Source of the DNA: Candidatus Thorarchaeota archaeon
Lineage (GTDB): Archaea > Asgardarchaeota > Thorarchaeia > Thorarchaeales > Thorarchaeaceae
Length of the DNA: 64,000 nucleotides
NCBI GenBank assembly: GCA_003345555.1
Contig: PRDJ01000042.1
Span: 12,282 to 76,281, forward strand
Direction: 5' to 3'
Part shown: positions 2,326 through 24,315 of the stretch, one piece after another
Layout: every line of letters begins with the position of its first letter
Position numbering within the stretch: position 1 is the stretch's first letter
Notes under the pieces: model-generated
Told to the model about the DNA's origin: nothing
The model's database searches: none
What the model saw: only the letters and a program-made list of their open reading frames with translations
Program-made: the position numbers and the translations under genes

Positions 2326-2326
2326 T

Positions 2327-2851: not shown

Positions 2852-2929
2852 AACCTCACCTCGTTTATTCTGCCCAAGTGAGGTTCAAGATTCTAATAAA
2901 CAAAGCTCAGGTTGTCAGACGGTTTAGTG

Positions 2930-4261: not shown

Positions 4262-4753
4262 TTGGTGAGTGAGATTAGCAGAATTCCATTGAGATACATG
4301 TTCTGGGCTATTCTCTACTCATTCATAATCAATCTTCTTGACGAAACGATGATGAATGGTGGCTTCGTCGAAGGGGTGAAGACGCATTTCTGGGCAGATT
4401 TCTCTTCTGACAAGTTCTTCTTAATGAACGGTCTGTTCATTCTTTTCATCACGGTGAGCATTCTAATCTATGAAAGAAGAGGCGGCCGCTGGGTTGTGTT
4501 CCCGCTTTTCTGGTCGATGGAACGCACGTTCAATGGATTTTGGCATGTCTGGTGGACTCTTGCATTCCTCAGTTACTCTCCTGGTTTGGTGACCAGTGGC
4601 CTCTTCTGGATCATCACATACTTGCTGGTCAAGGAGAACTACAGACAGGGCGATTTCACAAGAAGACAACTACTGACAGCAACTGCGACTGCGTTGGTCT
4701 TTGAGTCACTATTCCTAGGACTGTTTCTGGTTGTTCCTCTGTTAGGAGCATAG
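4262..4753 (+). CDS. polytopic membrane protein, hypothetical
   Basis: 163 aa, four or five hydrophobic spans. Confidence 0.45.
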   Translation: MVSEISRIPLRYMFWAILYSFIINLLDETMMNGGFVEGVKTHFWADFSSDKFFLMNGLFILFITVSILIYERRGGRWVVFPLFWSMERTFNGFWHVWWTLAFLSYSPGLVTSGLFWIITYLLVKENYRQGDFTRRQLLTATATALVFESLFLGLFLVVPLLGA

Positions 4754-4782
4754 TGCACACGGCATAAAGAGTGAAGTGGATG

Positions 4783-5142
4783 CTACGCGTCTCCGCCCAA
4801 GAGACTCTCGACGAGTTCGGCATAGATTTCCTCCGGCATGACACCGACGAGTCTGTCCATTTTCTTACCGCTTCCATCATCGAATACTACACGCCTGCCT
4901 TCGCTGAACACGAAGACCGAAGGTACACCACTCACTCTGTTCTTCATACTGAATTCCCGGTTATTGTCAACGTCTATCTTTACGACCTTAAGCCCTCTAT
5001 CGCCATACTTCTCAACTAGTCCCTCAAGAATCGGGCTCAGGACTTTGCAGGGGTGACACCAAGTGGCAAAACAGTCCACAAACACCAGCTTGTTGTCGCT
5101 GACGACTTTTTCAAGCTGGTCAGACATGATTTCATCAACCAT
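4783..5142 (-). CDS. thioredoxin paralog (WCHPC active site)
   Basis: 119 aa; ATWCHPCKVLSPILE, same fold pattern as the thioredoxin at 2930..3298. Confidence 0.8.
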   Translation of the reverse strand: MVDEIMSDQLEKVVSDNKLVFVDCFATWCHPCKVLSPILEGLVEKYGDRGLKVVKIDVDNNREFSMKNRVSGVPSVFVFSEGRRVVFDDGSGKKMDRLVGVMPEEIYAELVESLLGGDA

Positions 5143-5306
5143 CGATTACTTTCTCCACTCATCGGTTGTGCACGATTACCGCACAACCCTTTTAATGTTT
5201 ACGATAGAACACCAAGAAGGTGTTCTGCTATCTGCTTTTCAGTTTTCATCGGCTGTGCACTGCCAAACTTTGATAAGCGCCAGACCGACGTGCTGTCAAG
5301 TCCTAG

Positions 5307-7979: not shown

Positions 7980-9923
7980 GTGACTGAGTTCCTTATCAAT
8001 CGTGGTCATGATGGTCCTGCTCGCTCTGGTACGCTCAGGCTGAAATCCTCAACTACATCCACACCCGCCTTGATCGGAGGAACTAGTTCTACTGATTCTA
8101 TTCTAGGGATCTGGACCTTAGGACGTGATTCTCGGCCATTGTCGGTCCCCTGCATTCTCGCCCTGCCTCCTCTCTCAGACTACACCGATTCGATGCTGGA
8201 ATTGATCCGAGATGATGATCCGATTCTCTTGCCATCGCTGCCATCCTCATCGACCTTGGGCCCGGACTTTGCAGCGGCTCTTCTCAATCGACAGCTGGTT
8301 CTTCTACAGAATTCAGGAGATATGATTGAACCGTCGAGAGTGATAGTTAGAATACCTCCTCAAGTAAAACATGAGCTTCTTGACTCCATAGTCCCTCGGT
8401 TCGACGAGCTAGGCGTTCGCGGTGCGGCGTTCGTATTCAACGGCGAGCTTGGTCCGAACGACCGAGACTCGCTAGCGCTTCGGTCAAGGCTTCCTCGCAA
8501 TTGGCTAACATTGGCGCTCGGAAGAATAGAGCCGTATGCCATTCCAGTATTCTACTATCTGGGTCTTGACTTGATTGATGCTGGTAGAGCATTGGGTGCG
8601 GCGGCTCAGGGAATCCGTCTGTGGCCCAGAGGATACGAGAGCATTCCACATTCCGAGGAGATACGCTATTGTTCTTGTCACGCATGTTCGTCGCAGACGA
8701 ATCTAGCAGATATTGACAGAGAAGCCCTTCAGACAGTTCTCGTGGCACACAACATGGGTCTCTGCAGGACGTTTCTCTCAGAGAGTGTGAACGCGGCACA
8801 TTTGGGGCAGCTGCGGTCTCTTGTCGAATCTATGACCCACTCAAGCCCGGCATCTGCAGCTTTCCTGAGAACCGTCGATAAGGAACTCTACACTTTTACC
8901 GAAGAGTTCACCAACACAACGGGGAGTGGTGCTCTGCCGCTCATTGGTCCGGAGTCGTACAATTCCCCTGTTGTGAGACGATTCCGTGAATATGTCGCAT
9001 CAAGATATGTGCCACCTAGTTACAAGAAGCTCATACTAATCCTGCCATGTTCTGCCCGCAAGCCGTATTCAGACTCAAAGTCACACAAGCTGTTCCGGGA
9101 GGTCACCGATGCAGGCTTGGGAGCATCGAGATTCGCAGTCGCGGAAACCATACTGACATCGCCACTAGGGGTTATTCCCAGAGAGCTTGAACGAAGTTAC
9201 CCGGCATCCTTCTACGATCTTCCTGTGACCGGTGATTGGGACGCAGAGGAAACCGCGATTGCTGCTGACGCACTTTCTGTGCACCTGGCAAAATTCGACA
9301 AATCGGCTGTGGTTATTGCACACGTTTCGGGAGGGTATGAAGATGCTGTCAAGGCTGCTGAATCCAGAATTCAGCAGAGCATAATTTACACCACGAGTGG
9401 TCAACCAGCTACCAGCAGGGAGTCGCTAGAATCTCTGGGGGAGACTCTCAAAGAACTGGTGGATGTTCTCTCCCTGAAGTCCGGCCGTAGCCTTGAGAAC
9501 AAGGAGATACTTCGGGCAACTGCTGACTTCCAGTTCGGATCCGGTTCGGGCGAAGTTCTGATTCCCGAGAATGCATCGGTATGGGGCAAGCCTTATGGTA
9601 TGATTGTTAGTCGGATTGAGAAAGAGCAGACCTGCGCCTATGTGGCTGCTTCGGGTGCTCTCTCTCTTACGCTTGTGGGCGGGCGGCTAGTAGCTCCTCT
9701 TGAACGATACTGGGTACGATTCGATGGGCGCCGGATAAAGGGGGGTTCGGTCTTTGCTGTTGGCGTCCTTGACGCAGACCCGAAGATACGACCGGGCGAC
9801 GAGGTTATTGTGATTGGGACTGATGATGAGGTCATAGGAGTAGGCCGCAGTGAAATGTCTGGCATTGAGATGTGTGAGTTCGAGAAGGGCTGCGCAGTGT
9901 CCGTGCGGCACAAGGTGGATTGA
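7980..9923 (+). CDS. archaeosine synthase (ArcS)-like protein: TGT-fold domain, DUF5591-like middle region, C-terminal PUA domain
   Basis: 647 aa. TGT zinc motif CSCHAC...H (CxCxxC-H); PCSARKPY segment; C-terminal PUA-like YWVRFDGRRIKGGSVFAVGVLDADPKIRPGDEVIVI. Starts 12 nt after the helicase stop. Confidence 0.55.
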   Translation: MTEFLINRGHDGPARSGTLRLKSSTTSTPALIGGTSSTDSILGIWTLGRDSRPLSVPCILALPPLSDYTDSMLELIRDDDPILLPSLPSSSTLGPDFAAALLNRQLVLLQNSGDMIEPSRVIVRIPPQVKHELLDSIVPRFDELGVRGAAFVFNGELGPNDRDSLALRSRLPRNWLTLALGRIEPYAIPVFYYLGLDLIDAGRALGAAAQGIRLWPRGYESIPHSEEIRYCSCHACSSQTNLADIDREALQTVLVAHNMGLCRTFLSESVNAAHLGQLRSLVESMTHSSPASAAFLRTVDKELYTFTEEFTNTTGSGALPLIGPESYNSPVVRRFREYVASRYVPPSYKKLILILPCSARKPYSDSKSHKLFREVTDAGLGASRFAVAETILTSPLGVIPRELERSYPASFYDLPVTGDWDAEETAIAADALSVHLAKFDKSAVVIAHVSGGYEDAVKAAESRIQQSIIYTTSGQPATSRESLESLGETLKELVDVLSLKSGRSLENKEILRATADFQFGSGSGEVLIPENASVWGKPYGMIVSRIEKEQTCAYVAASGALSLTLVGGRLVAPLERYWVRFDGRRIKGGSVFAVGVLDADPKIRPGDEVIVIGTDDEVIGVGRSEMSGIEMCEFEKGCAVSVRHKVD

Positions 9924-9932
9924 GAGTAAGCC

Positions 9933-11033
9933 ATGGATGATTTTACGGATGAACTGCACAGGCTTGTTGTCGAGGAAACAAGGAGTGCAAGAGGAGCCTC
10001 AATTCGCAAACGTCCTGCTAGACCTGCCATCATGCCAGCTTCTGCATGGACGACAGAGACCCGAATTTCGTCCGAGACCGGAAGGGCTCTGTCCATTGTG
10101 TTTTCCACGATAGGATGTGCTCACGCGCGCGATGCCTCCGGAGGTTGCACTATGTGCAGTTACCTTCTGGATGGCACTCAAAGGTCACCGTCGTCCGAAG
10201 AGCTTCAACAGCAGTTCACGAACGCAATGTCAAAGCTAGAGGGGGCACCTAGCCCGGTCTCTGTGAAGCTCTACACCAGTGGTAGCTTCTTGGACCCGGG
10301 CGAGGTGCCGGTCTCTGCTAGGACTGCCATATTGGAGATGCTTGCTGCTGACAGCCGAGTACGTGAGGTAGTGCTGGAATCGCGCCCTGAGTATGTGTCT
10401 CAGGAGGTCATGGCGGAGCTGAGAAAGTCTCTTGGAGACAAAGAGATAGAACTCGGCATTGGTCTGGAGAGCAGTAATGATCTGATTAGGTCAATATGCA
10501 TCAACAAGGGGTTCTCAGCTGAGGACTTTCACAATGCCATCGAGATAGCAAGGTCAGAAGGAATTGGTGTGCGTGCCTATGTCTTGGTGAAGCCTCCCTT
10601 CCTGACTGAAAGGGATGCTCTTCTTGATGGCATACAGACGATTCGTGATGTAGCCGCCATGGGTGCCACAACAATCTCAGTCAATCCTGTCAACGTCCAG
10701 AGCTATACTCTCGTGGAGCGGCTGTGGTCCAGAGGCGAGTATCGGCCCCCGTGGCTGTGGACTGTGCTTGAGATTCTGCGACAGTCGAGTAGTTCCTCGG
10801 GCGATTCAGTCAGAATTGTGTGCGACCCCGTGGCGGCGGGAAGAATACGAGGAACGCACAACTGTGGGGTTTGTGACGAGGCTGTCTCGCAAGCCATTCA
10901 TGAGTTTTCCTTAGTTCAGGATGCATCCGTTCTGGAGGGTCTCGACTGCAGCTGCTTGTCTGAGTGGGAACATGTGCTGGAACACGAAGACTCGTCGCTG
11001 TTAGTGCACGATCATACGTTAACGGGCAAATAG
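9933..11033 (+). CDS. radical SAM-like protein with atypical Cx9Cx2C motif (RaSEA-like partner of ArcS)
   Basis: 366 aa; GCAHARDASGGCTMCSY cluster; TIM-barrel-like pattern (LYTSGSFLD, ELGIGLESS, VKPPFLTERD); starts 9 nt after the ArcS-like gene. Confidence 0.45.
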   Translation: MDDFTDELHRLVVEETRSARGASIRKRPARPAIMPASAWTTETRISSETGRALSIVFSTIGCAHARDASGGCTMCSYLLDGTQRSPSSEELQQQFTNAMSKLEGAPSPVSVKLYTSGSFLDPGEVPVSARTAILEMLAADSRVREVVLESRPEYVSQEVMAELRKSLGDKEIELGIGLESSNDLIRSICINKGFSAEDFHNAIEIARSEGIGVRAYVLVKPPFLTERDALLDGIQTIRDVAAMGATTISVNPVNVQSYTLVERLWSRGEYRPPWLWTVLEILRQSSSSSGDSVRIVCDPVAAGRIRGTHNCGVCDEAVSQAIHEFSLVQDASVLEGLDCSCLSEWEHVLEHEDSSLLVHDHTLTGK

Positions 11034-11508: not shown

Positions 11509-13317
11509 TTAGTCAGAGGCCACTTCGGGTTCGCGACGCTGGTACTCGCCCTCTCCTTTGACCACAATACGGAGTGACTTCTTGTCGCTTGGATTCATGC
11601 GAGCCCAGGTCCAGACCATGTCAGTGCCGTCTTTCGCAGGATTCCGCTTTGGTTCGTCCTCTCGAGGATCTGTTGATACATAAGTGAAACCGCTAGGGAT
11701 CCAGTCTACAAGTTTCACGTTCTCGACAGTGACTTCACCTTTGTTCTCGACGACCAGTGTTATCACATACTCACCAGCCTTCGAGCCCTTGCTAATCGCC
11801 TTCTTTGCTGCGATACGACGCTTCCGATATACTACACCAAGCTTATGGGCAAAAGGTGTGGATACAGCTTCTGCAGCAAATCCAGCGGGGTGGGTATAAG
11901 CCCAACAATGGATTGGACTGGGGTACTCTTTCTCTGGCCTATTGCGCCAAGCCATTATGGCGTAGCTAACCTTCAAGCTATCACCGGGCTTCAGCTCACC
12001 CATGCTATCCCTCATGCCAGAGATCTTGATTCTAACCTTGTGCGGCGTCTCCGGGTTCTGGTCGTCAGGGGTTATTGTGACGCCGTAGGTTCCTGTATAC
12101 TCCTTTCCCGCGACCGAGACCGTCACATGTTCCTTCTTAGGAGGCATCACATCATCAGGAAGACTATCTTCTACCTCAATCTGGTCAAGGCGCGCCGAAC
12201 CGCTGTTCTTAATGTCGATTGTCACCTCGACCGGCGTCTTGTCAAGGCTGCTAACTTCTGAGGGATCGAATGACTTCGCATAGGTAATCTGGCACACTGG
12301 CAGGATCTGTGGCACTTTGGTTGCTGTTCCGAGCACTCTTCTCTTGACAACCCTTACCGGGGTGTAGACGACATCAGGTGTGCACTTGGGCGGGGCTTTG
12401 CTGTCAACTTCAAATGATGACCTCCAAGTCTCACCTGGCTTCATCTCGACGCGGGGCGCAACTTCCACCATCTTCTTTTTCTCGCCACCCCCTTCTGGTG
12501 TGAGGAATACCACTGCCTTGTCAAGGCGAACTATCAAGTCGGTTTCGTTTGAGCACTCAAGAGTACACTCCCAGTGGTTGGGCTCGGTCTCAGCAGTCTC
12601 AATGCCGCTGAGGAACTCCGTGAGCGCGGTCATGTCAGGGTCCAAGCACGATCTCTGTTGACCCTGAGACTTGTAGCTGATGACAACTTCACCCGCATTT
12701 TTCTCGCTTACATCATCAACATGAGCTAGACCCGAGAGCGTTAGTGTGGACTCTTCCTTGGGGTAGATGACGAAGTCTTTCCATACAACTTGTCGGGTTC
12801 CCTCATCGAACTTTGCCATACCCGATTTCGCACTGTCGACTTTGACCTTCGTCAGTTCAGGAGGAATCGTCTTGTTGACAATGATGTTGTCAATCTGGCC
12901 ATCCGTCTCATTCTTGAGGTGCAGTGTAATCCTGACTGGGTTCTCCTTACCATGCACGTATGCCCAATGCGGGCTCTCTGCAGTGATGCTGCTACAGGTG
13001 TCATATGTCTCGGTGAGCGTAAGGATAGGCCCATCAATAGTGATACCATATTTCGTGCTCCACTCTCCGCCTGCTTCAACCTCACCGGCTGACAGCGTCG
13101 AGTCTTTGATGGTTGTACCGCTTCTGCTGTCTCCAAGGTTCACTCTGACATTCCATATGCGAGCTTGGGCCGAAACATTTTTGACAGTCATAACGCCTGT
13201 CGCTTCGGCAGACTCAATCTCACTCAGTTCACCAAAGCGGTTCTTCTCGCTTTCCTCCAAGTCTATAATCACATTCTTGCGCTCACTCATCGATATCTCA
13301 CCCGCCTGCGTGCTCAT
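11509..13317 (-). CDS. large repeat-domain protein (DUF11/CARDB-like beta-sandwich repeats), no signal peptide
   Basis: 602 aa with repeated about 100-aa units. Its start overlaps the stop of the MBL hydrolase gene by 4 nt. Confidence 0.45.
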   Translation of the reverse strand: MSTQAGEISMSERKNVIIDLEESEKNRFGELSEIESAEATGVMTVKNVSAQARIWNVRVNLGDSRSGTTIKDSTLSAGEVEAGGEWSTKYGITIDGPILTLTETYDTCSSITAESPHWAYVHGKENPVRITLHLKNETDGQIDNIIVNKTIPPELTKVKVDSAKSGMAKFDEGTRQVVWKDFVIYPKEESTLTLSGLAHVDDVSEKNAGEVVISYKSQGQQRSCLDPDMTALTEFLSGIETAETEPNHWECTLECSNETDLIVRLDKAVVFLTPEGGGEKKKMVEVAPRVEMKPGETWRSSFEVDSKAPPKCTPDVVYTPVRVVKRRVLGTATKVPQILPVCQITYAKSFDPSEVSSLDKTPVEVTIDIKNSGSARLDQIEVEDSLPDDVMPPKKEHVTVSVAGKEYTGTYGVTITPDDQNPETPHKVRIKISGMRDSMGELKPGDSLKVSYAIMAWRNRPEKEYPSPIHCWAYTHPAGFAAEAVSTPFAHKLGVVYRKRRIAAKKAISKGSKAGEYVITLVVENKGEVTVENVKLVDWIPSGFTYVSTDPREDEPKRNPAKDGTDMVWTWARMNPSDKKSLRIVVKGEGEYQRREPEVASD

Positions 13318-14009
13318 GACACTTTATACCTGAATTCATTACCTGCGGCCCACTGAATCTCGAGAACCTGCTTAGGTTCCATTAGAATCGCGACGGTACC
13401 GCTTGCGAACTGCTCCAAGTACTTCCGGAATTTCGCACTCTGTTCCGGTGCGGTCCATCTGATGGGAATCCCTATTCTCGGCTTTGCATCTATGCAGAGG
13501 CTAACTGCATCCTTGACCGCGAAAACCTCGCCATCCCCTACTGGAACAATCATGACATCTGCCTCGATTTTTCCAAATGCACCCCGGACCACAGTGTCAC
13601 CAAGGTACGCGACCTTCATTCCAGACATTTCCAAGTACAAACCCAGATTCTGGGATTTCTCTCCCGACTTTGGGTCTGCTCTCTGAAGAGAGTAGGGAAC
13701 AAGCTTGAGACCTGGTATCTGATAGACTTCTTCTGGTCTCAATATGTGGAGAAGCCAAGGCTTCCCTCCTTGGGATTTTGCCTTCTCGATTGTCTGCTCA
13801 TTTCCCAAGATCCATGCCTTGGACTTCGAGGCAATAGCTGTAGCGTTACCAATCGCATCATCGAAGTGGTTAGTTGCCACTATGACTCTCACATCGCAGT
13901 CATCAGGCACTACGGGTTTTCCGTCCCATATGCCAGGATTCAGGAGGACTGACATGTCTTTGGAATCCAGCCTGAACGAAGTGTGACCGAAGTATGTAAT
14001 CTTTAGCAA
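13314..14009 (-). CDS. MBL-fold metal-dependent hydrolase (UPF0173-like)
   Basis: 231 aa; KITYFGHTSFRLD ... LGDT pattern of the beta-lactamase fold. Confidence 0.65.
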   Translation of the reverse strand: MLKITYFGHTSFRLDSKDMSVLLNPGIWDGKPVVPDDCDVRVIVATNHFDDAIGNATAIASKSKAWILGNEQTIEKAKSQGGKPWLLHILRPEEVYQIPGLKLVPYSLQRADPKSGEKSQNLGLYLEMSGMKVAYLGDTVVRGAFGKIEADVMIVPVGDGEVFAVKDAVSLCIDAKPRIGIPIRWTAPEQSAKFRKYLEQFASGTVAILMEPKQVLEIQWAAGNEFRYKVS

Positions 14010-14245
14010 CTGGCCACTTCCATTAGTACCGTTAGTCGCCGCTGGGTTGGAACTCCTGCAGCTGAAGGTAATCTAGGTCCCATTCCTTAAAAACAAAATT
14101 CGCATTGGTGCTTACTTTGAAGCACCAGCGGCATACTGTGAGATTACTCGACAGTCCTGTGCAAAGGTTATTGAGTCCCGCAGATTGCGAAACGACAAGT
14201 ACTACACTAGTATGAGCACACAGAACGGGCTCCGGAGACCGCAGC

Positions 14246-15151
14246 ATGTACGAATACAAATCGCAGCAACGGACACTAGAATTCGGTGGTGTGAAGATCG
14301 GAGGAACACCGGGGCTTGCGCCGACAGTCCTCATAGGTTCCATTTTCTATTCGAAAGATAAGTTAGTGCTTGACCCGAAGGCTGGTGATATAGACAAGCC
14401 TCAGACGGACAGAGTTCTGACTGAAGTCGCAGATATGTCAGAAAGAACGGGGTTACCCAGCATGCTGGACGTAGTTGCATCCTCGTCACCCGCAATGAGG
14501 CGATACATCACCTACCTCGCCGACAAGACGAGTATGCCGCTGCTAATCGACGGGTCTGGCTCTCAAGACGTGAATCTCGCCGGCATAGAGATGGCGCGTG
14601 AGAATGGCATGCTGGACAGAGTAATGCTCAATTCATTGACCCCGGAGACTAGTAATGAAATGTACAGGAAGATGCAGGAGGCAGGTCTCAAGAGTGCAGT
14701 TATCCTTACATTCTCCAAGGATGCTATGTCTTCTGTAGCAAAAAGAACCGAACTCGCTGATCAAATCCTTGCAAAAGCCACAGACTCTGGATTGACCAAC
14801 CTGATAATCGACACTGGGGTTGTAGATATGCTCACTCTTGGACTTGCCTGCAAAGCCATGCAATCAATCAAGGACAAGCTTGGCTACCCGGTAGGATGCG
14901 GTGCCCATAATGCGGTGAACATGTGGGCCGGCTTGGTTCCAAAATTCGGGAAGGACGCGAAGAATCCGGCTCTTGTTGGATCGAGTCTCATGCCCGTTGT
15001 TCTTGGGGCCGACTTCGTGCTTTATGGTCCCGTGAAGCATGCAGGTATTGTATTTCCTTCTGTGGCCATGATTGACACGGCTCTCTCAGGCGTGCTGCTA
15101 GAGAAGAGAATCCGACCGGACCGACAGCATCCTCGCTTCAGAATCGGCTAG
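14246..15151 (+). CDS. mtrH: MtrH-family methyl-H4MPT:corrinoid methyltransferase (stand-alone)
   Basis: 301 aa. Strong resemblance to MtrH: FGGVKIGGTPGLAPTVL, GYPVGCGAHNAVNMW, GADFVLYGPVKHAGIVFPSVAMID. Confidence 0.85.
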   Translation: MYEYKSQQRTLEFGGVKIGGTPGLAPTVLIGSIFYSKDKLVLDPKAGDIDKPQTDRVLTEVADMSERTGLPSMLDVVASSSPAMRRYITYLADKTSMPLLIDGSGSQDVNLAGIEMARENGMLDRVMLNSLTPETSNEMYRKMQEAGLKSAVILTFSKDAMSSVAKRTELADQILAKATDSGLTNLIIDTGVVDMLTLGLACKAMQSIKDKLGYPVGCGAHNAVNMWAGLVPKFGKDAKNPALVGSSLMPVVLGADFVLYGPVKHAGIVFPSVAMIDTALSGVLLEKRIRPDRQHPRFRIG

Positions 15152-15162
15152 GTGATTCTGAC

Positions 15163-16818
15163 TTGTCAGGACCTATGCTTGTGTTTGAACCATCTGGCCA
15201 GAGGATTTACGTGTCTCATGCTACAACGGTGCTTGACGCAGCTCGCAGTCTTGGTCTTCCCATTCCTACAGACTGTGGAGGCCATGGCACATGCGGAAAG
15301 TGCAGGATTAAGTTTCAACCAGCGCCATTCCCGACTCAACGGGATTTGCAGCATCTATCCAAGGACGAACTGGCAGAAGGTATACGTCTGGCCTGCGAGC
15401 ACGTGATTGAAACAGACACGAGGGTTGTTCTTCCATTTCCTGAAGAGCAGGCCAAGATTCTGGTCTGGGGATCTTCGAAGGCTGCTGTGCAGAAACTGGA
15501 CAAAGGCCTTGTCGGACAGTTGGGAGTCGCAATAGACCTAGGCACGACAACCATAGTAGCTTACCTCATGGACCTGGGGACAGGTAGTCAGATTGAACAA
15601 CAGGCAATGCTCAACCCAGAGGTTGCCTATGGGGAGGACATCATGACGCGCATGGCCTATGTCATGAACGCGCATGAGGGCGGTGAGGAGCTCCGTCAAT
15701 GTGTGCTTCGCGGCATTGATGTGCTTCTCACGCGTCTTATTAGCGCAGCAGGAGTACTTCCCGACACTGTCTCTCGCATCTCGCTTGTGGGCAACACTGC
15801 CATGCACCATCTCTTTTTGGGATTGGACATCCACGGTCTGAGTCTTGCACCGTACAGACCAGCCATGTTGAAGTCACTCACGAAATCATCTGACGAAATC
15901 GGGCTCAAGTCCGTTCCAAAGGCTCAGGTATATGTTGCTCCGAATATTGAAGGTTTCATAGGCAGTGATACGGTAGGTCTTATTGTCTCACAAGGGCTTG
16001 GCTCTGTCAAGGGCACAGTGATGGGGATTGACATAGGAACCAACGCAGAGATAGTCCTCTCGGTTCGCGGGCGCCTCATATGTTGTTCAGCAGCAGCAGG
16101 TCCTGCGTTCGAAGGAGCAAGAATCAGGCTTGGCATGAGGGGCGAAGAGGGTGCGATAGAACACGTGCGTATCAACAATCCCTCAGAGCCGGCAGAATTG
16201 TCTGTGATAGGACAGGCTTCTCCTCGAGGCATTTGCGGCTCAGCTATCGTCGACATAGTCGCCGAGCTGTTGAGAACAGGTCTTGTAGACCGTACTGGAC
16301 GGATGCGAGACTCGAAGAGGATTGTTCATGAAGGCGGGTACGGTCTCTGCTACATCGTAGCAGAACCAGGCGAGTCTGACGCGGGCCGACGCATAGTGTT
16401 CACTCAGGAAGACGTAAGACAGGTCCAGCTTGCAAAGGCAGCAATTGCTACGGGTGCCGGGGTCCTAATGGATGAATGCGGCGTTACCTCTTATGATATT
16501 GATGCGCTTCTTCTAGCCGGCGCATTTGGAAACTACATCCGCCCTGAGAGTGCCTTAGCGATTGGTCTTCTTCCTGCGATCCCACTGGACAGAATCGTTC
16601 CGGTTGGAAACGCAGCAGGTGAGGGTGCCAAGAGGTTTCTTCTGTCCTTGAAAGAGAGGGCGGTTGCTGAGACGCTTAGCAGGAGCGTCAAGTACGTCAA
16701 TCTTGCTGCTCATCCAGCGTTTGCTGACAGGTTCTTGGAGGCCACAGCAATAGGTCAAGCTGGAGACGGTTCGAATCACAGCCATGTGCGGATAGCCAAC
16801 CACACTAGCAATCCGTAG
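15163..16818 (+). CDS. corrinoid activation/regeneration protein (RACo family: 2Fe-2S ferredoxin plus ASKHA ATPase)
   Basis: 551 aa; N-terminal CGGHGTCGKCR ferredoxin motif followed by a large ASKHA-like domain. Confidence 0.7.
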   Translation: MSGPMLVFEPSGQRIYVSHATTVLDAARSLGLPIPTDCGGHGTCGKCRIKFQPAPFPTQRDLQHLSKDELAEGIRLACEHVIETDTRVVLPFPEEQAKILVWGSSKAAVQKLDKGLVGQLGVAIDLGTTTIVAYLMDLGTGSQIEQQAMLNPEVAYGEDIMTRMAYVMNAHEGGEELRQCVLRGIDVLLTRLISAAGVLPDTVSRISLVGNTAMHHLFLGLDIHGLSLAPYRPAMLKSLTKSSDEIGLKSVPKAQVYVAPNIEGFIGSDTVGLIVSQGLGSVKGTVMGIDIGTNAEIVLSVRGRLICCSAAAGPAFEGARIRLGMRGEEGAIEHVRINNPSEPAELSVIGQASPRGICGSAIVDIVAELLRTGLVDRTGRMRDSKRIVHEGGYGLCYIVAEPGESDAGRRIVFTQEDVRQVQLAKAAIATGAGVLMDECGVTSYDIDALLLAGAFGNYIRPESALAIGLLPAIPLDRIVPVGNAAGEGAKRFLLSLKERAVAETLSRSVKYVNLAAHPAFADRFLEATAIGQAGDGSNHSHVRIANHTSNP

Positions 16819-17005
16819 ACGAATCTCCAAAGCCAGTATCCATGATGAAAGATATATGTCCGTCAGCTTCCGGAGAATCCTAGTCCAATCAGCAGATGGC
16901 CACAGGACAGCCCGAAGCCGCTAAGATCCGTTGGCAAGGGCTGAGACCAGTCGATCTGCACCTGCGACACGACTAGTGACACTCCAAAGACTGAGGAAAT
17001 GCAAA

Positions 17006-17635
17006 ATGACAGATTTGACAGACGCAATGGCAGACCTTGACGAGCAGAAAGTGTTGAACATTGTCAATGAACAAATCCGCACGAACAAACCCGTTCAGAT
17101 TCTCGATGAATTACGGCGAGGCTTGGACATCGTGGGTAACAGGTTCTCAAAGAATGAGTATTTTCTGGTCGAGTTGGTGATGTCAGCCGACATATTCAAG
17201 AAAGCGATGGCGATAGTAGAACCGAAACTGCTGGCTACTCAGCGTGCGAGCGCAAAGGGTAAGGTCGTAATCGGGACTGTCCAAGGCGACATCCATTACA
17301 TAGGCAAGAACCTTGTCGTTGCGTTTCTCAAATCCAACGGATTCGAGGTCTACGATTTGGGCGAAGATGTGCCGCCTGAGAAGTTTGTTGACACGCTCAA
17401 GAAAACAGGATCTTCCATTCTTGCGCTTAGCGGGCTGATTACTACTACTCATGATGTAATGCGAACGACAATTGAGGCGCTCAAGACTGCAGGCATTAGG
17501 AAGAAGGTCAAAGTAATGATTGGCGGTGGAGACATCGGCGAGGAGATCGTGAAATACACTGGTGCAGATGCTTTTGGTAGGGATGCCCTTAGTGCAGTAG
17601 AGCTTGCCAAGAAGTTCACTGCGGGGACAAAGTGA
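17006..17635 (+). CDS. cobalamin-binding corrinoid protein (MtaC/MtbC-like)
   Basis: B12-binding motifs GDIHYIGKN (DxHxxG), LALSGL (SxL), MIGGG. The ORF-track start at 16931 is probably spurious; ATG 17006 is in the same frame. Confidence 0.8.
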   Translation: MTDLTDAMADLDEQKVLNIVNEQIRTNKPVQILDELRRGLDIVGNRFSKNEYFLVELVMSADIFKKAMAIVEPKLLATQRASAKGKVVIGTVQGDIHYIGKNLVVAFLKSNGFEVYDLGEDVPPEKFVDTLKKTGSSILALSGLITTTHDVMRTTIEALKTAGIRKKVKVMIGGGDIGEEIVKYTGADAFGRDALSAVELAKKFTAGTK

Positions 17636-17809: not shown

Positions 17810-19123
17810 TTGTACAAGAGGGGTCTCATGCTCGAAAGAATTCTCACCGATGAATTTAGGAATCAATTGAAAGCCACCTTCATGGACATACGTGAAACTC
17901 AGGAAAAGAAAGATGAGAACGAACTGGCGAAAGACGAGGAAAGACTGAGGCACAAGCTCATTGACAGTATTGAACCATATCGGTCCGATGTTGTGTTCGA
18001 CACGGATTATATGGTCTCTGCAGTCGACGGGTCCGGCTCAAGCGAACTCGCAACTCTCAACGATGTGAGGGTTCACCTACTGAGCACATCCACCATCGTG
18101 CTTGGCACAAATACGAAGAACGGTGCACCTTTCATGCCGATGGACAGAGTCACGCTGGAGGCCGCACTTGGTCGGGCACAACCGTATGTGAACTCCTATT
18201 GGCATTCAGGCGTGAGAGGGGATGCCAGAGAAAAGATGGCAGAGACGCTCGAAGATATCTACCCGGTCAGTAAAATACCGGATCTGATCCTGCCCTTCTT
18301 CAGAGACACAACAAACGGGCAGATACAGTCAATCGCGGACCTGTCGAACTCTCGGTATAGCGAGCACGCTGCAATGCTGCAAACCATGGAATCACTCATT
18401 TTCTATGGGCAGTTTCTTACAAATACCCACGTTCACGACGAACTCCGTAAGGCCTCCGAGTATGCCGCTGCTCGAGCCGTCATAACCAGTGACATCAGGC
18501 CGAAGTATGTGCTGCTTGACGGTGCCATGTCCATGTTCTTGCATCAGGTTGGCCAGTATCCTATAATGCCGACGGGCTTCATGCTAAGGGAGCTGTGTTC
18601 CGTTGCGCGTGACAAGCGCGTCGTATTGTGTGCGGTAAGCAAGAGTCATACGATTCCGGGCGCGGATCGAATTGCAGAGTTGGCTGAAGAGGTGATCGGC
18701 AAGAGCAACAAGTGGTTTTGTTTCCTTCCCGGTCAAGACGACCCCGGCGGAGGTCTTCACATTCTGGAGAAGCGAACATATATTCCGCCACCCTTGGCCG
18801 TGCCCTACTTGTTCAGCTTTTCTCAGGACAACCGGCCATCGCGGATTGACTTCGACAGAGTATGGTGGCTTCAGGACATATTCGTGGCAGGTGACCCAAA
18901 GAAGACGAGGCAAAACGAAAAAGCGCTCTTTCGGGATATTGAGTTCATGTCAAGAGATGCTCGGTGGTATGGTTACCCCGTTGCTCTCGCGTTGGCACAT
19001 GAGGAATGCAAGTTGAGCTACGAAGACCTAAGACTTGCGAAGGAAATCGCTGATGATGTTCTTCAGGAATTGGGAATGGGTATTCGAAGAACTGTGGAAC
19101 TGAGAGAAGACTACAATTTATAG
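17810..19123 (+). CDS. nurA: NurA-like 5'-3' nuclease
   Basis: 437 aa; AVDGSGS motif resembling the NurA IDGS catalytic motif; directly upstream of herA-mre11-rad50. Confidence 0.55.
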   Translation: MYKRGLMLERILTDEFRNQLKATFMDIRETQEKKDENELAKDEERLRHKLIDSIEPYRSDVVFDTDYMVSAVDGSGSSELATLNDVRVHLLSTSTIVLGTNTKNGAPFMPMDRVTLEAALGRAQPYVNSYWHSGVRGDAREKMAETLEDIYPVSKIPDLILPFFRDTTNGQIQSIADLSNSRYSEHAAMLQTMESLIFYGQFLTNTHVHDELRKASEYAAARAVITSDIRPKYVLLDGAMSMFLHQVGQYPIMPTGFMLRELCSVARDKRVVLCAVSKSHTIPGADRIAELAEEVIGKSNKWFCFLPGQDDPGGGLHILEKRTYIPPPLAVPYLFSFSQDNRPSRIDFDRVWWLQDIFVAGDPKKTRQNEKALFRDIEFMSRDARWYGYPVALALAHEECKLSYEDLRLAKEIADDVLQELGMGIRRTVELREDYNL

Positions 19124-19142
19124 ATACTACGAGTGATGCGCT

Positions 19143-20906
19143 ATGACTCTGGATGTGAAAACCCTCGGCGACTTGTACGGCAAGGTAGCAATAGGGAATC
19201 AGGCCATGCTTGGGATTATGGGAAACAACCGTGATATCAGCGTCGGTGAGATATTCATGGTGTATTCCCAGAGAGACGGACACGAGCGAGTGTTCTTCTT
19301 CCGTGTCTCAGCCCTCCAAAACTACCTGCGTCATGTGGACGACATGGCGCGCGTAGCTGGCACATTGATGATTGAAGGGGACGCGTATCTCTCAGGCATC
19401 AAGAGAGACATGCTACTCGAAGTCGAAGGAAAGATGCTTGGGTACGCAGAAATGGAGAACGGGAAATACGCCTTCAAATCGCCGCGCCGTCTTCCTGACC
19501 ATCTTGCTGATGTGTACCGACCAGTCCCCGGTGTCTCCGACAAGACCGTAAGGGAAATGCTGTCTAGTCAAACAGGCGGCGAAGTGCTCATCGGAGACCT
19601 ACAAGTTGGCGAGGCCACGCTAGATGTCCCGGTGGGCATACCTGCGAAGTTCCTTCCAATGCACATGGGAATCTATGGGTCCACAGGTTCTGGAAAAAGC
19701 AACCTGATGATGGTGATGATCAAATCCATTTTGGATTCAAATCTCGAGGGAATTCGCAGTCCGAATGAGCCTCGTACCCGTATCTCGGCCTTCTGCATAG
19801 ACCCGCACGACGAGTTCGCCAAGGGTGTCACGAAGTTCGGAATCCAGAACGTAGTGGAGGCAATGGATCAGGACACTAGGTCGGCGGTCATAGGTGACTT
19901 CTACTACCTTACAACGCATCTCAAGGCCACTCCTCGGGAAATCCAGCGATATGGCAGGGAGATACGTATCCTATGGGAAGAGATCCTGCCGCACGATCTC
20001 TATACCATCATGGACTTCACTCCACAAATGGTATCCTTCATTGATGCTCAGTATGCCATTAACAAAGAGAACTGGATATCGGCAATACTTGACCTGACGG
20101 AAGACCCCGACATGGTACAAAAGGGAACTCTGAATGCTGTCCAGCGACGCCTTCGATTCATTGAACGTTCGCCAATCTTCGTCCGTAGCGGTTCGTCTAT
20201 ACTAGATGATGTATTCGTGGCCATGGAGACGGGGCGCGTGCTCGTAGTCAACACCAGCCTGATGAGTGATACGGAGCAGTTTCTCCTTACGACAGTAGTC
20301 GCACGTTCGATATCCGATCTCAGAAGGGCCGCGAAAAGCAGCGGAACGCTGGGGGACTTCGAGACTCAGGGCCAGCTTAGGCTTCCCGCCCCATTCTTCG
20401 GCCGCATCAAGACCAAGGCAAGATCCTTCTACACGAAAGGTGGAAAGAGCGATGATTCTGGGGTACGCGATCCACGCGAAATGCCTGTGATTCTCGTGAC
20501 CGTTGAAGAAGCCCCTTCAATTCTCAATCCCCAACTGATGCAGGGGCAGTCGGTGTTCAAGGACATCTCTCGTCAAGGGCGGAAGTTCAACATAGGCCTC
20601 GTCGTGATAAGTCAGCAGGTCAGCGTTCTGGATAATGTGATACTGAGCCAGATGAACACCCAGGTCAATCTTCGACTCGGTAACGAGCATGAGATTCAAG
20701 CATGTGTCGATAATGCAAGCATCAACATATCGGGCATGGAGAACGAGTTCCGTGTCATGGTCAAAGGAGACGCGATACTCACAGCATCATATCGTGAGCT
20801 TCCTTTGCCTGTCCATGTACCTCTCTTCGATACATTGTTCGAACGTGACAAGGGAAAGTACAAACCATCAAAGACCGCACGGTCAAGCGAGAAACACACA
20901 CTCTGA
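19143..20906 (+). CDS. herA: HerA helicase/ATPase
   Basis: 587 aa; Walker A GSTGSGKS (FtsK/HerA type); Walker B-like VTVEEAP; operon context. Confidence 0.8.
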   Translation: MTLDVKTLGDLYGKVAIGNQAMLGIMGNNRDISVGEIFMVYSQRDGHERVFFFRVSALQNYLRHVDDMARVAGTLMIEGDAYLSGIKRDMLLEVEGKMLGYAEMENGKYAFKSPRRLPDHLADVYRPVPGVSDKTVREMLSSQTGGEVLIGDLQVGEATLDVPVGIPAKFLPMHMGIYGSTGSGKSNLMMVMIKSILDSNLEGIRSPNEPRTRISAFCIDPHDEFAKGVTKFGIQNVVEAMDQDTRSAVIGDFYYLTTHLKATPREIQRYGREIRILWEEILPHDLYTIMDFTPQMVSFIDAQYAINKENWISAILDLTEDPDMVQKGTLNAVQRRLRFIERSPIFVRSGSSILDDVFVAMETGRVLVVNTSLMSDTEQFLLTTVVARSISDLRRAAKSSGTLGDFETQGQLRLPAPFFGRIKTKARSFYTKGGKSDDSGVRDPREMPVILVTVEEAPSILNPQLMQGQSVFKDISRQGRKFNIGLVVISQQVSVLDNVILSQMNTQVNLRLGNEHEIQACVDNASINISGMENEFRVMVKGDAILTASYRELPLPVHVPLFDTLFERDKGKYKPSKTARSSEKHTL

Positions 20907-20914
20907 GGCGCATC

Positions 20915-22228
20915 TTGATGACTGCACGCATTGCGCACATATCGGACACCCATCTGGGCACGAGGCCTAGAGACGGGGTCAGGTCCGATGTCTGGGCAGT
21001 CGAGATGCGTACACGAGTCATCGAGAATGATTTCTATGAGCGCTTCGCAGAGATCTTTGACAGGATTGCCTCACTTGATCCTCCAGTCGACCTAGTCATA
21101 CACTCCGGTGATCTCTATGACTCACCGTCGGAAGAGAACCCCTCGCAGCCGCCGGTGGTAGCTCAGGAGACTGCGCTGTCAGTTCTGAAGAGCTTCACCG
21201 AGAAGACTGGAATTCCTGTTCTGATAATAGAGGGAAATCACGGGCTCTATAGATCAATGGATGTGTCATTGCTTGATTCTCTAAGAATGTCAATCTCTGG
21301 TCTCAATGTTGCCACGCATGTTGACCTCAAACAAGCATTCAACAAGAAAGAACCGCTGAAGTACTCTTACGACAAACTGGACGTCTTCTGTTTCCCATAC
21401 ATGAGCGCGAGTCTGTTGGAATCATCCGGCTTGGTAAACGAATTCAGTGACTGGATAATGACGAATCAGTCTCCTAGCAGCCGGAAGGCATCTGTTGCAG
21501 TAGTTCATGGAATGGATAGTGATCGAACACTTCCTCCATCTATCCTTAGTATGGGTTATAGCTACATTGCTCTTGGACACGATCACAAGCAGCACAAGCA
21601 TTCTGAGAATGCTTGGTACGCGGGATCGACTGAAAGATGGAGGTTCGATGAGGCAGGACAAAAGAAGGGCTTTCTCGTAGTCGAGATAGCGGCAAACGAA
21701 CGCCCGTCTGTGACCCCTGAATACATTCATTTCGCGCGTCCAGTCTTCAACCGAAGAATGACCACTGAGGATATTGGAAGCACCGAATCTCTGACTCAGA
21801 AAATCGATGCTTGGTTTTCTGAAAAGGGTATCAGGGGACCTTGGGATTCGTCAACTGCCGCTAGAATCAGGTTCGATTTTCGAGGGTCTTCTCGTATTGG
21901 TAATCTCGAAATCATGAATGCAATGGAAGCCTACAGAACGAAGGTCCTGCAATCGGGGTCTGATTACAACATAGCCCAGCTGACTTGGCATACTCGCCCG
22001 CCTGAAACCGAACCGAGTCTCACCGCATTTCCTGAAATCGAGTCCGAGTACCTTATCGAGAACCCCGAAGAGGATTTTCGCGCATACTTGGACACGATCA
22101 AAGGGCTTGACACACAGTTTGACCCCGCTCTCTTGACGAAAGTGGCTGTGCGAGCACTCAAGATGTCCGTAAAGAAAGGTGAAGACAAGCTTACACTCGA
22201 AACACTGTCGGAGGACGAGGGCAGATGA
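20915..22228 (+). CDS. mre11: Mre11 nuclease
   Basis: Phosphoesterase motifs in order: ISDTHLG, HSGDLYD, GNHG, ALGHDH, YAGSTER. Confidence 0.85.
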   Translation: MMTARIAHISDTHLGTRPRDGVRSDVWAVEMRTRVIENDFYERFAEIFDRIASLDPPVDLVIHSGDLYDSPSEENPSQPPVVAQETALSVLKSFTEKTGIPVLIIEGNHGLYRSMDVSLLDSLRMSISGLNVATHVDLKQAFNKKEPLKYSYDKLDVFCFPYMSASLLESSGLVNEFSDWIMTNQSPSSRKASVAVVHGMDSDRTLPPSILSMGYSYIALGHDHKQHKHSENAWYAGSTERWRFDEAGQKKGFLVVEIAANERPSVTPEYIHFARPVFNRRMTTEDIGSTESLTQKIDAWFSEKGIRGPWDSSTAARIRFDFRGSSRIGNLEIMNAMEAYRTKVLQSGSDYNIAQLTWHTRPPETEPSLTAFPEIESEYLIENPEEDFRAYLDTIKGLDTQFDPALLTKVAVRALKMSVKKGEDKLTLETLSEDEGR

Positions 22229-24315
22229 AGGTGCTGAGCATCAAACTCAGGAGCTTCAAGCCCTTCCGTAGTCTTCTCCTACCTGACGATGAAGGCGATC
22301 TTCCAGAAGGCTTGATACTGGTTCGAGGACCGAATTCCACAGGCAAGTCCTCGCTCTTCGAAGCAATACTGTGGGGTCTCTGGGGAGCAGACGCAGTGAA
22401 GCTCAACAACGATGAGCTTGTTAGCTTCGGTGCGGCGTCATGTGAAGTTACCATAATCTTTGAGATTGAGAAAAAGCAGTACAAGATTGTCAGGTCGTAC
22501 GGTTTGGATAAGCGTCTGTCTGTCACGCTCTACGCGAAGGCAAACGGCAACTGGAAACCCATAGCTGACAAGAGCAGTTCCGTGGCTACGAAGCTAGAAG
22601 AGATACTCAACCTCCAGCTGAACCAAGCTCTAAACACGCTTCTTGTCCGACAAGGGGAAGTCGCCACCATTGCCAGTGCTACTCCCTCTGAGCTGAGAGA
22701 GCTTCTTGTAAAGGTTTACAACATTGAGCTATTGGATAAGATGGAAACACATCTGGAGAGTCTTGAGTCAGATGTTGCATCCAAGGTCAAGACGCTGAAA
22801 GACAACTATGAGGCGCCTGAACTAATCGAGGAGAGAATCAGACAATCGGAATCCCGAATTCGCAAACAAGAAGAAGGGCTTGAGGCAAGAACCAACCAAC
22901 AGGCTGTCTTGCTCTCTCAGGTAGAGTCTCTTCCCAATCCGGCCATCCTTTCAGAAGTTCTCAAGCTCGATTCTGACGTAGAAGGAAAAGAACGCGAGTA
23001 CGAGTATGCCATAAGCAACAGAGACAGAGAGCTTGCCGATGCTGGACTAGTCGACTCGACAGATATAGTGGTCCGGGCCCGCCAAGAGGAACTTGCCAAG
23101 GAGTTCGAGCGACTAACTGAACAGCGCGCCAGAATCGAGTCGGATATCACAGATGCTGATCAAGAAATCGGTGGGCTGGCTAAGGTTGACAAAGACCTGC
23201 TCAAGCAAGTCGAGACGCTTCAAGGAGCTGCCGAGTCTGTGGGACAAGGAATGAAATGTCCCACCTGTGGGAAGGCTCTATCAGTGAAAGAGCGCGACGA
23301 GTTGGTAGGGCAATACAGAGCCACACTCAACAAGGACGCTTCGCGACGAGACGACCTATCCAAGCTGAAGACCAAGCTGGCCGCGAACAAGAGGATTACG
23401 GACGAGAGACTCAATACCATTCCTTCCGCTATTGAGGCATTGAAACGGCTTTCTGAGCGGCAAGCAGCAGTTGACGAAACAAAGGGGCGGGTGGAGGAGT
23501 CTAAGGGATTGCTGAAATCCTTCCTCAAGGAACATGATATGCCTCCTCTACACGATCTCCTTAGCCAGTTTAACGCCAATGACTTGGCTGAGCTGCAACG
23601 CATCGTAGACGCAAGAAGCATTCAGCTCGAGTCGCTGAATCGAGAGATTGAATCAGCAAAAGCGGAGCTAGACGATAGGCGCAGGGAGAAAGATGAACTC
23701 GAAGCCAGGGCTACCCGAATGAAAGAGATTGGCGCTGAGATTTCAGACATGGAGACACTTGTTGAGCATACGAAGTATGTGAGAAGGAATCTTGTGAAGG
23801 GATTCATCTCCGACTATGTTGTTCAGAAACGATTGATTGGCATAATCAGGGCGGCCACTAATCAATACGTTCAGTCGTTTACGAATGGTCAGTACACTCG
23901 TATTGACTTGGTGCCGACTCCGGCAATGGCAAAGTCCGGTGCTGGGTTAATGCTCAAAGTTCATGACGATCGCGACAATCAGGAAAAGAAGGCCAGCCAG
24001 CTTAGCTACGGGGACCGGACTGCGGTGAGTCTTGCGCTGAGACTCGGAATCAGTCGAACCATGAGTAGAATCCGACCTTTGAAGGACAGTCCCGCGTATT
24101 CTCCTCGGGTCCAATGCGTTCTTCTGGATGAGCCTCTAGGCGGTCTCGATAGAGAACGGAGGGCATCGGTCGTCAGGAATCTAACAAGCGATCAAAGCTT
24201 CAAACAGATATTCCTGATTACGCATACCGATGTCCAAGGATTGGAGGGTGTCTCCGTCATCGATGTCGCAAAAAGCGGCTCGGGAAGTACAGCTACGCTC
24301 ATCGCCACATCATAG
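22225..24315 (+). CDS. rad50: Rad50 ATPase (short coiled coil)
   Basis: Walker A GPNSTGKSS; zinc hook CPTCG; signature LSYGDRTAVSLALRL; Walker B VLLDEPLGGLD; H-loop ITHTD; 4-nt overlap with mre11. Confidence 0.85.
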   Translation: MKVLSIKLRSFKPFRSLLLPDDEGDLPEGLILVRGPNSTGKSSLFEAILWGLWGADAVKLNNDELVSFGAASCEVTIIFEIEKKQYKIVRSYGLDKRLSVTLYAKANGNWKPIADKSSSVATKLEEILNLQLNQALNTLLVRQGEVATIASATPSELRELLVKVYNIELLDKMETHLESLESDVASKVKTLKDNYEAPELIEERIRQSESRIRKQEEGLEARTNQQAVLLSQVESLPNPAILSEVLKLDSDVEGKEREYEYAISNRDRELADAGLVDSTDIVVRARQEELAKEFERLTEQRARIESDITDADQEIGGLAKVDKDLLKQVETLQGAAESVGQGMKCPTCGKALSVKERDELVGQYRATLNKDASRRDDLSKLKTKLAANKRITDERLNTIPSAIEALKRLSERQAAVDETKGRVEESKGLLKSFLKEHDMPPLHDLLSQFNANDLAELQRIVDARSIQLESLNREIESAKAELDDRRREKDELEARATRMKEIGAEISDMETLVEHTKYVRRNLVKGFISDYVVQKRLIGIIRAATNQYVQSFTNGQYTRIDLVPTPAMAKSGAGLMLKVHDDRDNQEKKASQLSYGDRTAVSLALRLGISRTMSRIRPLKDSPAYSPRVQCVLLDEPLGGLDRERRASVVRNLTSDQSFKQIFLITHTDVQGLEGVSVIDVAKSGSGSTATLIATS

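Follow-up and report, generated by a model that had tools for sequence, protein, structure and literature searches.

A stand-alone MtrH-type methyltransferase encoded with a RACo-type activase and a corrinoid protein in Thorarchaeota: a predicted soluble methyl-transfer module

Soluble systems that move methyl groups by way of a corrinoid protein (CP) are known from archaea and bacteria. In the Mto cluster of Methermicoccus shengliensis, MtoA is an MtrH-like protein, MtoB an O-demethylase acting as the substrate-specific methyltransferase (MT1), MtoC the CP, and MtoD an activase with an N-terminal 2Fe-2S domain (PMC8630106). MtoD together with ATP and Ti(III) citrate brings MtoC to the Co(I) state, MtoB methylates MtoC, and MtoA as the second, pterin-dependent methyltransferase (MT2) demethylates CH3-Co(III)-MtoC with tetrahydrofolate (H4F), a stand-in for tetrahydromethanopterin (H4MPT), and not with coenzyme M (CoM) (PMC8630106). 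Along the same lines, the glycine betaine:tetrahydrofolate system MtgABC of Desulfitobacterium hafniense is composed of the MtrH-family protein MtgA, MtgB of the non-pyrrolysine MttB family, and the CP MtgC. Here we describe a locus of comparable gene content in a 64,000-nucleotide stretch of DNA from a Candidatus Thorarchaeota archaeon (contig PRDJ01000042.1 of assembly GCA_003345555.1; the whole stretch is called the window below), in which genes for an MtrH-family protein, a RACo-type activase and a CP follow one another on the same strand. We refer to these three genes as the trio.

Stand-alone MtrH proteins are well documented in non-methanogenic archaea, and one study calls their role unclear (PMC6421429). 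Another takes the Hermodarchaeota mtrH, which lies beside a CP gene, to connect methyl compounds with CH3-H4MPT, 'as suggested for Thorarchaeota' (PMC8163825), and a third places MtrH near MttB-like and MtbC-like genes in Atabeyarchaeia and Freyarchaeia (PMC11291895). The mtrH and CP pairs reported for Hermodarchaeota/Thorarchaeota, Bathyarchaeia and Verstraetearchaeota are loci of the same kind as the one in the window, and the role proposed for them is the same, namely to carry methyl groups from methylated compounds to CH3-H4MPT (PMC8163825, PMC6421429, PMC11291895). Thorarchaeia are further reported to encode the archaeal, H4MPT-dependent Wood-Ljungdahl pathway (PMC9723677) and to retain 'canonical MtrAH' (PMC9635834); unlike the latter, the MtrH gene of the window is not paired with MtrA. 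The kind of system is known from Mto and Mtg and the general idea has been published, so the gain is incremental: the trio is a Thorarchaeota-specific clade of that system. Measured against the excerpted literature, what may be new is the fixed MtrH-RACo-CP cassette, its separation from a permease-CP-MttB cassette, and a fused variant with two distinct CPs. These possibly new observations are modest in weight. They concern the Asgard archaea, the closest known relatives of eukaryotes; what is said of energy and carbon metabolism in this group still comes nearly all from genome-based inference.

The trio and its immediate borders are arranged as follows.

13314-14009, - strand: MBL-fold (metallo-beta-lactamase) hydrolase gene, upstream neighbour of the MtrH gene
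14010-14245: intergenic region separating the divergently oriented MBL-fold hydrolase and MtrH genes
14246-15151, + strand: MtrH-family gene, 301 aa, Pfam MtrH (PF02007)
15163/15181-16818, + strand: RACo gene, 551 or 545 aa, domains Fer2, Raco_middle and RACo_C_ter
16819-17005, + strand: spacer between the RACo and CP genes, 187 nt
16931/17006-17635, + strand: CP gene, 234 or 209 aa, domains B12-binding_2 and B12-binding

An earlier note, drawn from the letters alone, had recognized an MtrH homologue, a 2Fe-2S/ASKHA activase and a B12-binding protein on one strand, and the Pfam domains found at these positions agree with it. Public gene calls on an identical metagenomic contig of 183,818 bp give proteins of 301, 545 and 209 aa. 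The MtrH product matches, at 100% identity, a protein assigned by NCBI to Candidatus Thorarchaeota. Three start codons can be read from the sequence for RACo (TTG 15163, ATG 15175 and GTG 15181), and the public call takes the last of them (545 aa); depending on the choice, 11-29 nt separate the MtrH stop from the RACo start. For the CP, ATG 17006 yields 209 aa and the longest open reading frame (ORF) begins at TTG 16931, while orthologous CPs measure 207-211 aa wherever their start is clear. Compared with an 88%-identical relative, the dN/dS values of the MtrH, RACo and CP genes are 0.04, 0.10 and 0.06, respectively: all three are genuine genes, subject to strong purifying selection. The divergent region 14010-14245 presumably contains the promoter of the cassette, and an A/T-rich, TATA-like stretch, AAAGATATATG, at about 16848-16858 within the RACo-CP spacer may serve as an internal one. 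Between called RACo and CP ORFs this spacer ranges from ~10 to 250 nt among orthologues. Rfam returned no riboswitch or other RNA element at the trio locus, the spacer included.

Does this belong to the membrane-bound Mtr complex? The Pfam scan covered the long, non-shadow ORFs of the window (at least 150 aa), among which there are no MtrA-G, Mcr, MttB, MtaB or URO-D proteins, and tblastn of the window with MttB, URO-D and reductive dehalogenase (RDH) queries gave no match. The contig, 183.8 kb long, was followed for ~8 kb past each end of the window; these flanks hold housekeeping genes only and no mtrA-G, mcr or MT1. The earlier note had stated that no other mtr subunits are present and that the MT1 partner lies outside the window, and both statements stand. 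It had also held that mtrA-G and mcr genes nearby would point to an ordinary methanogen subunit; none occur over ~80 kb of contig, window and flanks taken together.

The MtrH-family protein itself points in the same direction. It matches PF02007 with E=2.4e-66 (224.4 bits against a cutoff of 22.8) over profile positions 2-289 of 299, and its best-scoring model is the NCBIfam 'MtrH family protein', at 281 bits against a cutoff of 287. It stays below the cutoffs of both the mtrH equivalog TIGR01114 (184.8 vs 271.4 bits) and the MtgA equivalog (194 vs 550). An AlphaFold model (pLDDT 87.5) has a TIM-barrel fold that can be superposed on all solved members of the family, with Foldseek TM scores of 0.85-0.92 against 8z9u, MtgA (6sk4) and MtrH of the Mtr complex (9qtp_o). 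The closest solved relative is 8z9u (234 bits, 41% identity, TM 0.85-0.91), followed by D. hafniense MtgA (167 bits, 35% identity, TM 0.90-0.92) and by MtrH of the Methanosarcina mazei Mtr complex (9qtp; 134 bits, 29% identity, TM 0.91/0.87). The fold search lists 8z9u under the title '2-methoxybenzoic acid methyltransferase (MtxA)' of M. shengliensis ZC-1; judged from this title and the organism, it appears to be the MtrH-like MT2 of the Mto system, MtoA.

The catalytic residues Asp102 and Asn222 of the window protein align with the sites of the MtgA mutants D102A and N227A (6sjo, 6sjp) and are invariant across 33 orthologues. Among representative proteins, 457 clusters match at E<=1e-3, the best representative being 45% identical. 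Going by these comparisons, the protein is best read as a non-canonical, MtoA/MtgA-like MT2, that is, a predicted methylcorrinoid:pterin methyltransferase. With MtrH of the Mtr complex it shares the Pfam family and the pterin-binding TIM-barrel fold, but it differs in having no MtrA-G partners, in its low identity and in the failed equivalog cutoff. The claim of a soluble module distinct from membrane Mtr, made in the earlier note and in essence already in print (PMC8163825), thus gains weight from that failed cutoff, from the nearest solved relatives, 8z9u and MtgA, and from a gene content equivalent to MtoA, MtoC and MtoD.

The second protein carries all three domains of a RACo-type activase above their cutoffs (Fer2, of the plant-type 2Fe-2S ferredoxin kind, 2e-10; Raco_middle, 3e-48; RACo_C_ter, 1.5e-81). 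Its best PDB match is 3zyy (320 bits), deposited as 'iron-sulfur cluster binding protein', which we take to be the RACo activase of Carboxydothermus hydrogenoformans. Four cysteines, Cys38, Cys44, Cys47 and Cys78, are predicted ligands of a [2Fe-2S] cluster and are kept in orthologues, as are the ASKHA phosphate-binding motifs DLGTT and DIGTN. Like 3zyy and AcsV, the window protein thus combines 2Fe-2S, middle and ASKHA ATPase domains. It differs from 3zyy in the stretch that joins the Fe-S domain to the middle domain, which is shorter by ~85 residues (residues 108-524 align to 201-619), and from both in its partner, an MtaC-type CP instead of the corrinoid iron-sulfur protein (CoFeSP). The NCBIfam cutoffs for AcsV (369 vs 800) and RamA (139 vs 500) are not reached. 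Its domains and motifs suggest a predicted ATP-dependent reductive activase that would return a corrinoid protein from Co(II) to Co(I).

The third protein consists of B12-binding_2 (2e-15) and B12-binding (3e-20) domains. The DxHxxG motif, which provides the cobalt ligand in the His-on form, reads GDIHYIGKN and is kept in orthologues. Its score with TIGR02370, the model for methyltransferase cognate corrinoid proteins, is 164.6 bits and below the cutoff of 215.3, so we regard it as a divergent member of the MtaC/MttC type. In the PDB it best matches 1y80, 4jgi and, within 7xcn, the MttC chain; the B12 region of MetH (TIGR02082) is matched as well, at 126 bits.

To place the trio in a wider frame, ~100 loci were collected by scanning metagenomes as well as genomes, the latter one per species, and a neighbour-joining tree was built from 100 MtrH sequences. 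Loci are cited by L numbers where they have to be told apart. Three groupings emerge: a Thorarchaeota clade that contains the window MtrH (57-88% identity); a sister clade, also from Thorarchaeota, in which MtrH genes stand solo and share 55-59% identity with the window protein; and distant clades at 39-46% identity, one of them around 8z9u, in which MttB, CP and RACo genes often adjoin. Within the window clade, the order MtrH-RACo-CP is found in ~25 of the 27 loci long enough to judge. With the same order in ~25 independent Thorarchaeota loci and dN/dS of 0.04-0.10, the arrangement is far beyond chance. Mtr genes are absent beside the cassette in all related loci.

The cassette occurs in two unrelated neighbourhoods, each conserved internally. 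In the first, that of the window, the trio is preceded by genes for an ArcS-like protein, RaSEA, a DUF11 protein and the MBL-fold hydrolase, and followed by an ORF in the position of NurA and by HerA, Mre11 and Rad50. The second has proteasome alpha, a radical SAM protein, a PAS histidine kinase and an RDH-family protein upstream, and a DNA methylase and a deacetylase downstream. Since the trio recurs in two settings that have nothing in common, it is to be regarded as a unit of which the surroundings are not a part.

If the trio supplies an MT2, an activase and a CP, where is the MT1? The earlier note had proposed to search for MttB-type enzymes elsewhere, and this search gave a positive lead. 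In one lineage, L107 (GCA_019058235.1), positions 398-5464 encode on one strand CP(217)-MttB(490)-MtrH(312)-RACo(535)-CP(partial). L035 has the same arrangement clipped at both contig ends (MttB-MtrH-RACo), and both loci fall within the MtrH clade of the window; in L060, an RDH-family gene on the - strand is followed by CP-MttB-MtrH. In L107, the partial CP at the downstream end shares 96% identity with the trio CP of a relative (L012), and the CP at the upstream end is another paralogue, with 28-35% identity to trio CPs. A query with the MttB of L035 retrieved a tight clade (66-95% identity) with several Thorarchaeota-named members, SMTZ1-83 among them. A Promethearchaeota MttB (L021) used as query returned only Bathyarchaeia and Nitrososphaeria as named organisms among its best 120 matches, and no Thorarchaeota-named one.

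Five further, distinct contexts consist of a permease (~500-530 aa), a CP (214-218 aa) and an MttB (478-482 aa), with no MtrH or RACo in any of the five. The MttB proteins of L112 and L107 have a sole match, trimeth_pyl, at 448-457 bits against a cutoff of 525. This Thorarchaeota clade carries Ile at the position of the pyrrolysine of Methanosarcina MttB which places it in the non-pyrrolysine branch of the family, whose characterised members remove methyl groups from quaternary amines, for example glycine betaine. One of the five cassettes, L112, comes from ENA sample ERZ27227668, where its contig measures 85.9 kb; a copy of the trio with 100% identity (L002) occurs in that sample as well. The composition of L112 is window-like: GC is 0.511 vs 0.510, and the tetranucleotide correlation with the window is 0.915, where equal-sized pieces of the window against its remainder give 0.914-0.947 and co-occurring Thorarchaeota lineages 0.85-0.88. 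This fits an origin of L112 and the window from one population, and falls short of proof. Thus, the gene content of the two Thorarchaeota cassettes is complementary, with MT2, activase and CP in one and permease, CP and MT1 in the other, and in one Thorarchaeota lineage, of the L107 type, the two are fused.

Placed beside the described systems, the trio comes closest to Mto in that equivalents of MtoA, MtoD and MtoC are encoded together, the activase has its 2Fe-2S domain at the N-terminus as in MtoD, and the whole is soluble, without Mtr membrane subunits. It differs in having no MtoB-type or other MT1 in cis, in its host, a non-methanogenic Asgard archaeon, and in the MT1 linked to it in an orthologous lineage, which is of the MttB family and not of the MtoB type. 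Identity to the Mto relative is only ~41%, and the window MtrH belongs to a separate Thorarchaeota clade. The combination of MtrH-family MT2, non-pyrrolysine MttB as MT1 and MtaC-type CP, as in the fused L107 operon, is that of MtgABC, and the counterparts of MtgA D102 and N227 are retained as Asp and Asn. Here the differences are 35% identity, unmet equivalog cutoffs for MtgA, MtgB and MtgC, the presence of two different CPs, an MT1 that is unlinked in the window genome, and an acceptor that in Thorarchaeota is probably H4MPT and not H4F.

We consider it fairly probable that the trio is the common half of a soluble corrinoid methyltransferase system, an MT2 and activase module that transfers methyl groups from the CP to H4MPT and relies on an MT1 in trans. 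In such a scheme, an MT1 encoded elsewhere, most likely a non-pyrrolysine MttB, would methylate the CP in its Co(I) form, and the cobamide of the CP would alternate between Co(I) and CH3-Co(III). The MtrH-family enzyme, acting as MT2, would hand the methyl group to H4MPT, from where it would enter the archaeal Wood-Ljungdahl pathway. Whenever the CP is accidentally oxidised to Co(II), RACo would re-reduce it to Co(I), drawing on its [2Fe-2S] cluster, ATP and a low-potential electron. The best MT1 candidate would be the Thorarchaeota-specific, non-pyrrolysine MttB-family enzyme accompanied by a permease and by a CP of its own. H4MPT as acceptor and the direction of transfer are suggested by the archaeal Wood-Ljungdahl pathway reported for the lineage (PMC9723677) and by analogy, and any pairing of a particular MT1 and CP with the window MtrH is likewise presumptive. 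A fixed MT2, activase and CP cassette that probably serves unlinked permease-CP-MttB (non-pyrrolysine) cassettes would offer a concrete and testable picture for Thorarchaeota. If true, methyl groups of quaternary amines or related compounds could reach the H4MPT Wood-Ljungdahl pathway with no need for Mtr, Mcr or CoM.

Several observations weigh against this picture. No MT1 lies within 10 kb in either of the two conserved neighbourhoods; the window lineage and most orthologous loci likewise have none within ~10 kb, and the window has no H4MPT, Wood-Ljungdahl or cdh genes. Two loci of the clade, L013 and L019, encode MtrH-CP without RACo. Trio CPs share only 28-43% identity with MttB-linked CPs, and this holds also for loci that have a CP-MttB pair directly upstream; with such a distinct, private CP, a simple scheme in which MT1 and MT2 share one CP is not established. 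A gene of the MtaA/CmuA family lies near two of the five MttB cassettes (L106 5565-11131, L112 120-5075), and it could be an MT2 of their own; the URO-D-family gene beside the MttB cassettes scores 205 bits with the MtaA/CmuA family (cutoff 235) and 87 bits with MtaA (4ay7), values that leave room for an MT1 as well as an MT2. Finally, sequence cannot separate H4MPT from H4F as the acceptor, and MtoA itself was assayed with H4F.

This last point leads to the first of the alternatives, the same module working with H4F in the manner of MtgA, which we hold to be unlikely. MtgA is a bona fide H4F enzyme of the family with 35% identity and TM 0.90-0.92, MtoA accepts H4F in vitro, and the window contains a weak match to a folate-family ECF (energy-coupling factor) S-component (60265-60840, E=7e-4). 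Yet the window MtrH resembles the archaeal, MtoA-type structure more than it does MtgA, its MtgA equivalog score is far under the cutoff, and the Wood-Ljungdahl pathway described for Thorarchaeia is the archaeal one, which uses H4MPT.

Could the methyl group travel in the opposite direction? As a biosynthetic shuttle, MtrH would load the CP from CH3-H4MPT, and another methyltransferase, for example a folate-independent core methionine synthase (MesA/B/C), would use the methyl-corrinoid; the trio would in that case amount to a MetH analogue adapted to H4MPT and split into pterin, B12 and reactivation modules. Core methionine synthases of Wood-Ljungdahl anaerobes are indeed predicted to draw their methyl group from corrinoid proteins (PMC7857596), although the predicted donors in that work are CoFeSP or MtrA and not an MtaC-type CP. 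The match of the CP to the B12 region of MetH, a CP of the cassette's own that is distinct from the MttB-linked one, the housekeeping surroundings (archaeosine synthesis, HerA-Mre11-Rad50) and the two conserved neighbourhoods devoid of an MT1 in cis would all suit such a shuttle. Against this, no homocysteine-binding or MetE-like gene adjoins in any of the ~100 loci, the linkage to MttB in L107 and L060 favours catabolic methyl input, and the closest characterised homologues, MtoA and MtgA, are catabolic MT2 enzymes. On balance the reverse direction appears rather improbable. A related view takes the cassette for a self-standing housekeeping shuttle and no accessory of methylotrophy at all, turning CH3-H4MPT into protein-bound methyl-cobamide for biosynthetic methylations such as folate-independent methionine synthesis. 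It would explain the private CP, the housekeeping neighbours and the lack of a cis MT1 across the class, and we rate it as likewise rather improbable.

A third alternative looks to the RDH-family gene. It is found divergently upstream of the cassette in ~12 orthologous loci (TIGR02486, 207 bits at a cutoff of 160, with two 4Fe-4S motifs):

L006 8528-9862, - strand: RDH-family gene, with equivalents in L007, L008, L012, L014, L015, L018, L020, L030, L037, L047 and L060

In most of these loci the gene abuts the MtrH gene, and in L060 the CP-MttB pair lies between them. One could imagine that RACo and CP handle or reactivate cobamide in support of an RDH- or QueG-like corrinoid enzyme, an idea which this recurrent neighbour invites. 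However, the trio is kept in the window lineage, where neither the window nor its flanks contain an RDH homologue, and MtrH has no known role in dehalogenation, all of which makes a support function very improbable. The weakest proposal, a subunit of membrane Mtr left behind as a remnant or orphan (an ordinary MtrH working with MtrA-G and CoM), can appeal to the database name 'tetrahydromethanopterin S-methyltransferase subunit H' and to the report of 'canonical MtrAH' as methanogenesis remnants in Thorarchaeia (PMC9635834), but it is contradicted for this locus, and hardly credible, given the failed mtrH equivalog cutoff, the mere 29% identity to the MtrH of the complex, neighbours that are an MtaC-type CP and RACo and not MtrA, and the lack of mtrA-G or mcr over ~80 kb of contig and of Mtr genes beside all related cassettes.

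The MtrH genes of the sister Thorarchaeota clade stand without RACo or CP. They are followed by a conserved ORF of 246-249 aa (L044 11015-11755; also in L040, L041, L042, L046, L055, L056 and L070). This ORF was considered as an MtrA and set aside: it gave no Pfam, NCBIfam or PDB match and is not detectably MtrA. Beside one sister-clade MtrH (L039) lies a luciferase-like gene which, had it been Mer, would have tied the MtrH family to H4MPT; it reaches 72 bits with the Mer equivalog against a cutoff of 349 and is a TIGR03560 F420-dependent LLM (luciferase-like monooxygenase) oxidoreductase. Two genes upstream of another sister-clade MtrH, a heliorhodopsin gene was noted (NF038020, 339 bits; L053 8203-9048, - strand).

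The remaining features of the window are listed in order of position.

501-578: tRNA-Arg (CCG), the sole RNA gene detected across the window
7980-11033: archaeosine tRNA-modification genes, ArcS-like (DUF5591, PUA and TGT_C2), then radical SAM RaSEA (TIGR01210, 358 bits)
17810-24315: DNA-repair operon directly 3' of the trio, with a 437-aa ORF, HerA (DUF87), Mre11 (Metallophos) and Rad50 (SMC_N)
26150-27700: PIG-U-like protein
27701-28891, - strand: IFT52 GIFT-domain protein
41440-42177, + strand: EAP30/Vps22-36-like ESCRT-II subunit
42226-42939, - strand: Vps25-like ESCRT-II subunit
42943-44172, - strand: Vps4
44269-44955, + strand: Snf7/ESCRT-III
52879-53712: longin-domain protein, weak match below cutoff
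57623-58387, - strand: Yip1-domain protein
60265-60840: folate-family ECF S-component, the weak match given above
60824-61483: HypB (TIGR00073, 239 bits)

The 437-aa ORF in the NurA position has no family match, and the DNA-repair operon is kept beside the trio only among close relatives of the window. Three long ORFs, at 24373-26196 (607 aa), 33085-34119 (344 aa) and 44957-46597 (546 aa), match neither Pfam nor NCBIfam at E<=0.001. The ESCRT cluster at 41440-44955 is a hallmark of Asgard archaea, and together with the longin, Yip1, PIG-U-like and IFT52-GIFT-like proteins, its ESCRT-II, Vps4 and Snf7 genes give a content that fits an Asgard archaeon. Just past the 3' end of the window (L023 4800-9247), the contig encodes selenocysteine machinery, with archaeal SelB, SepSecS and a KTI12/PSTK-like kinase.

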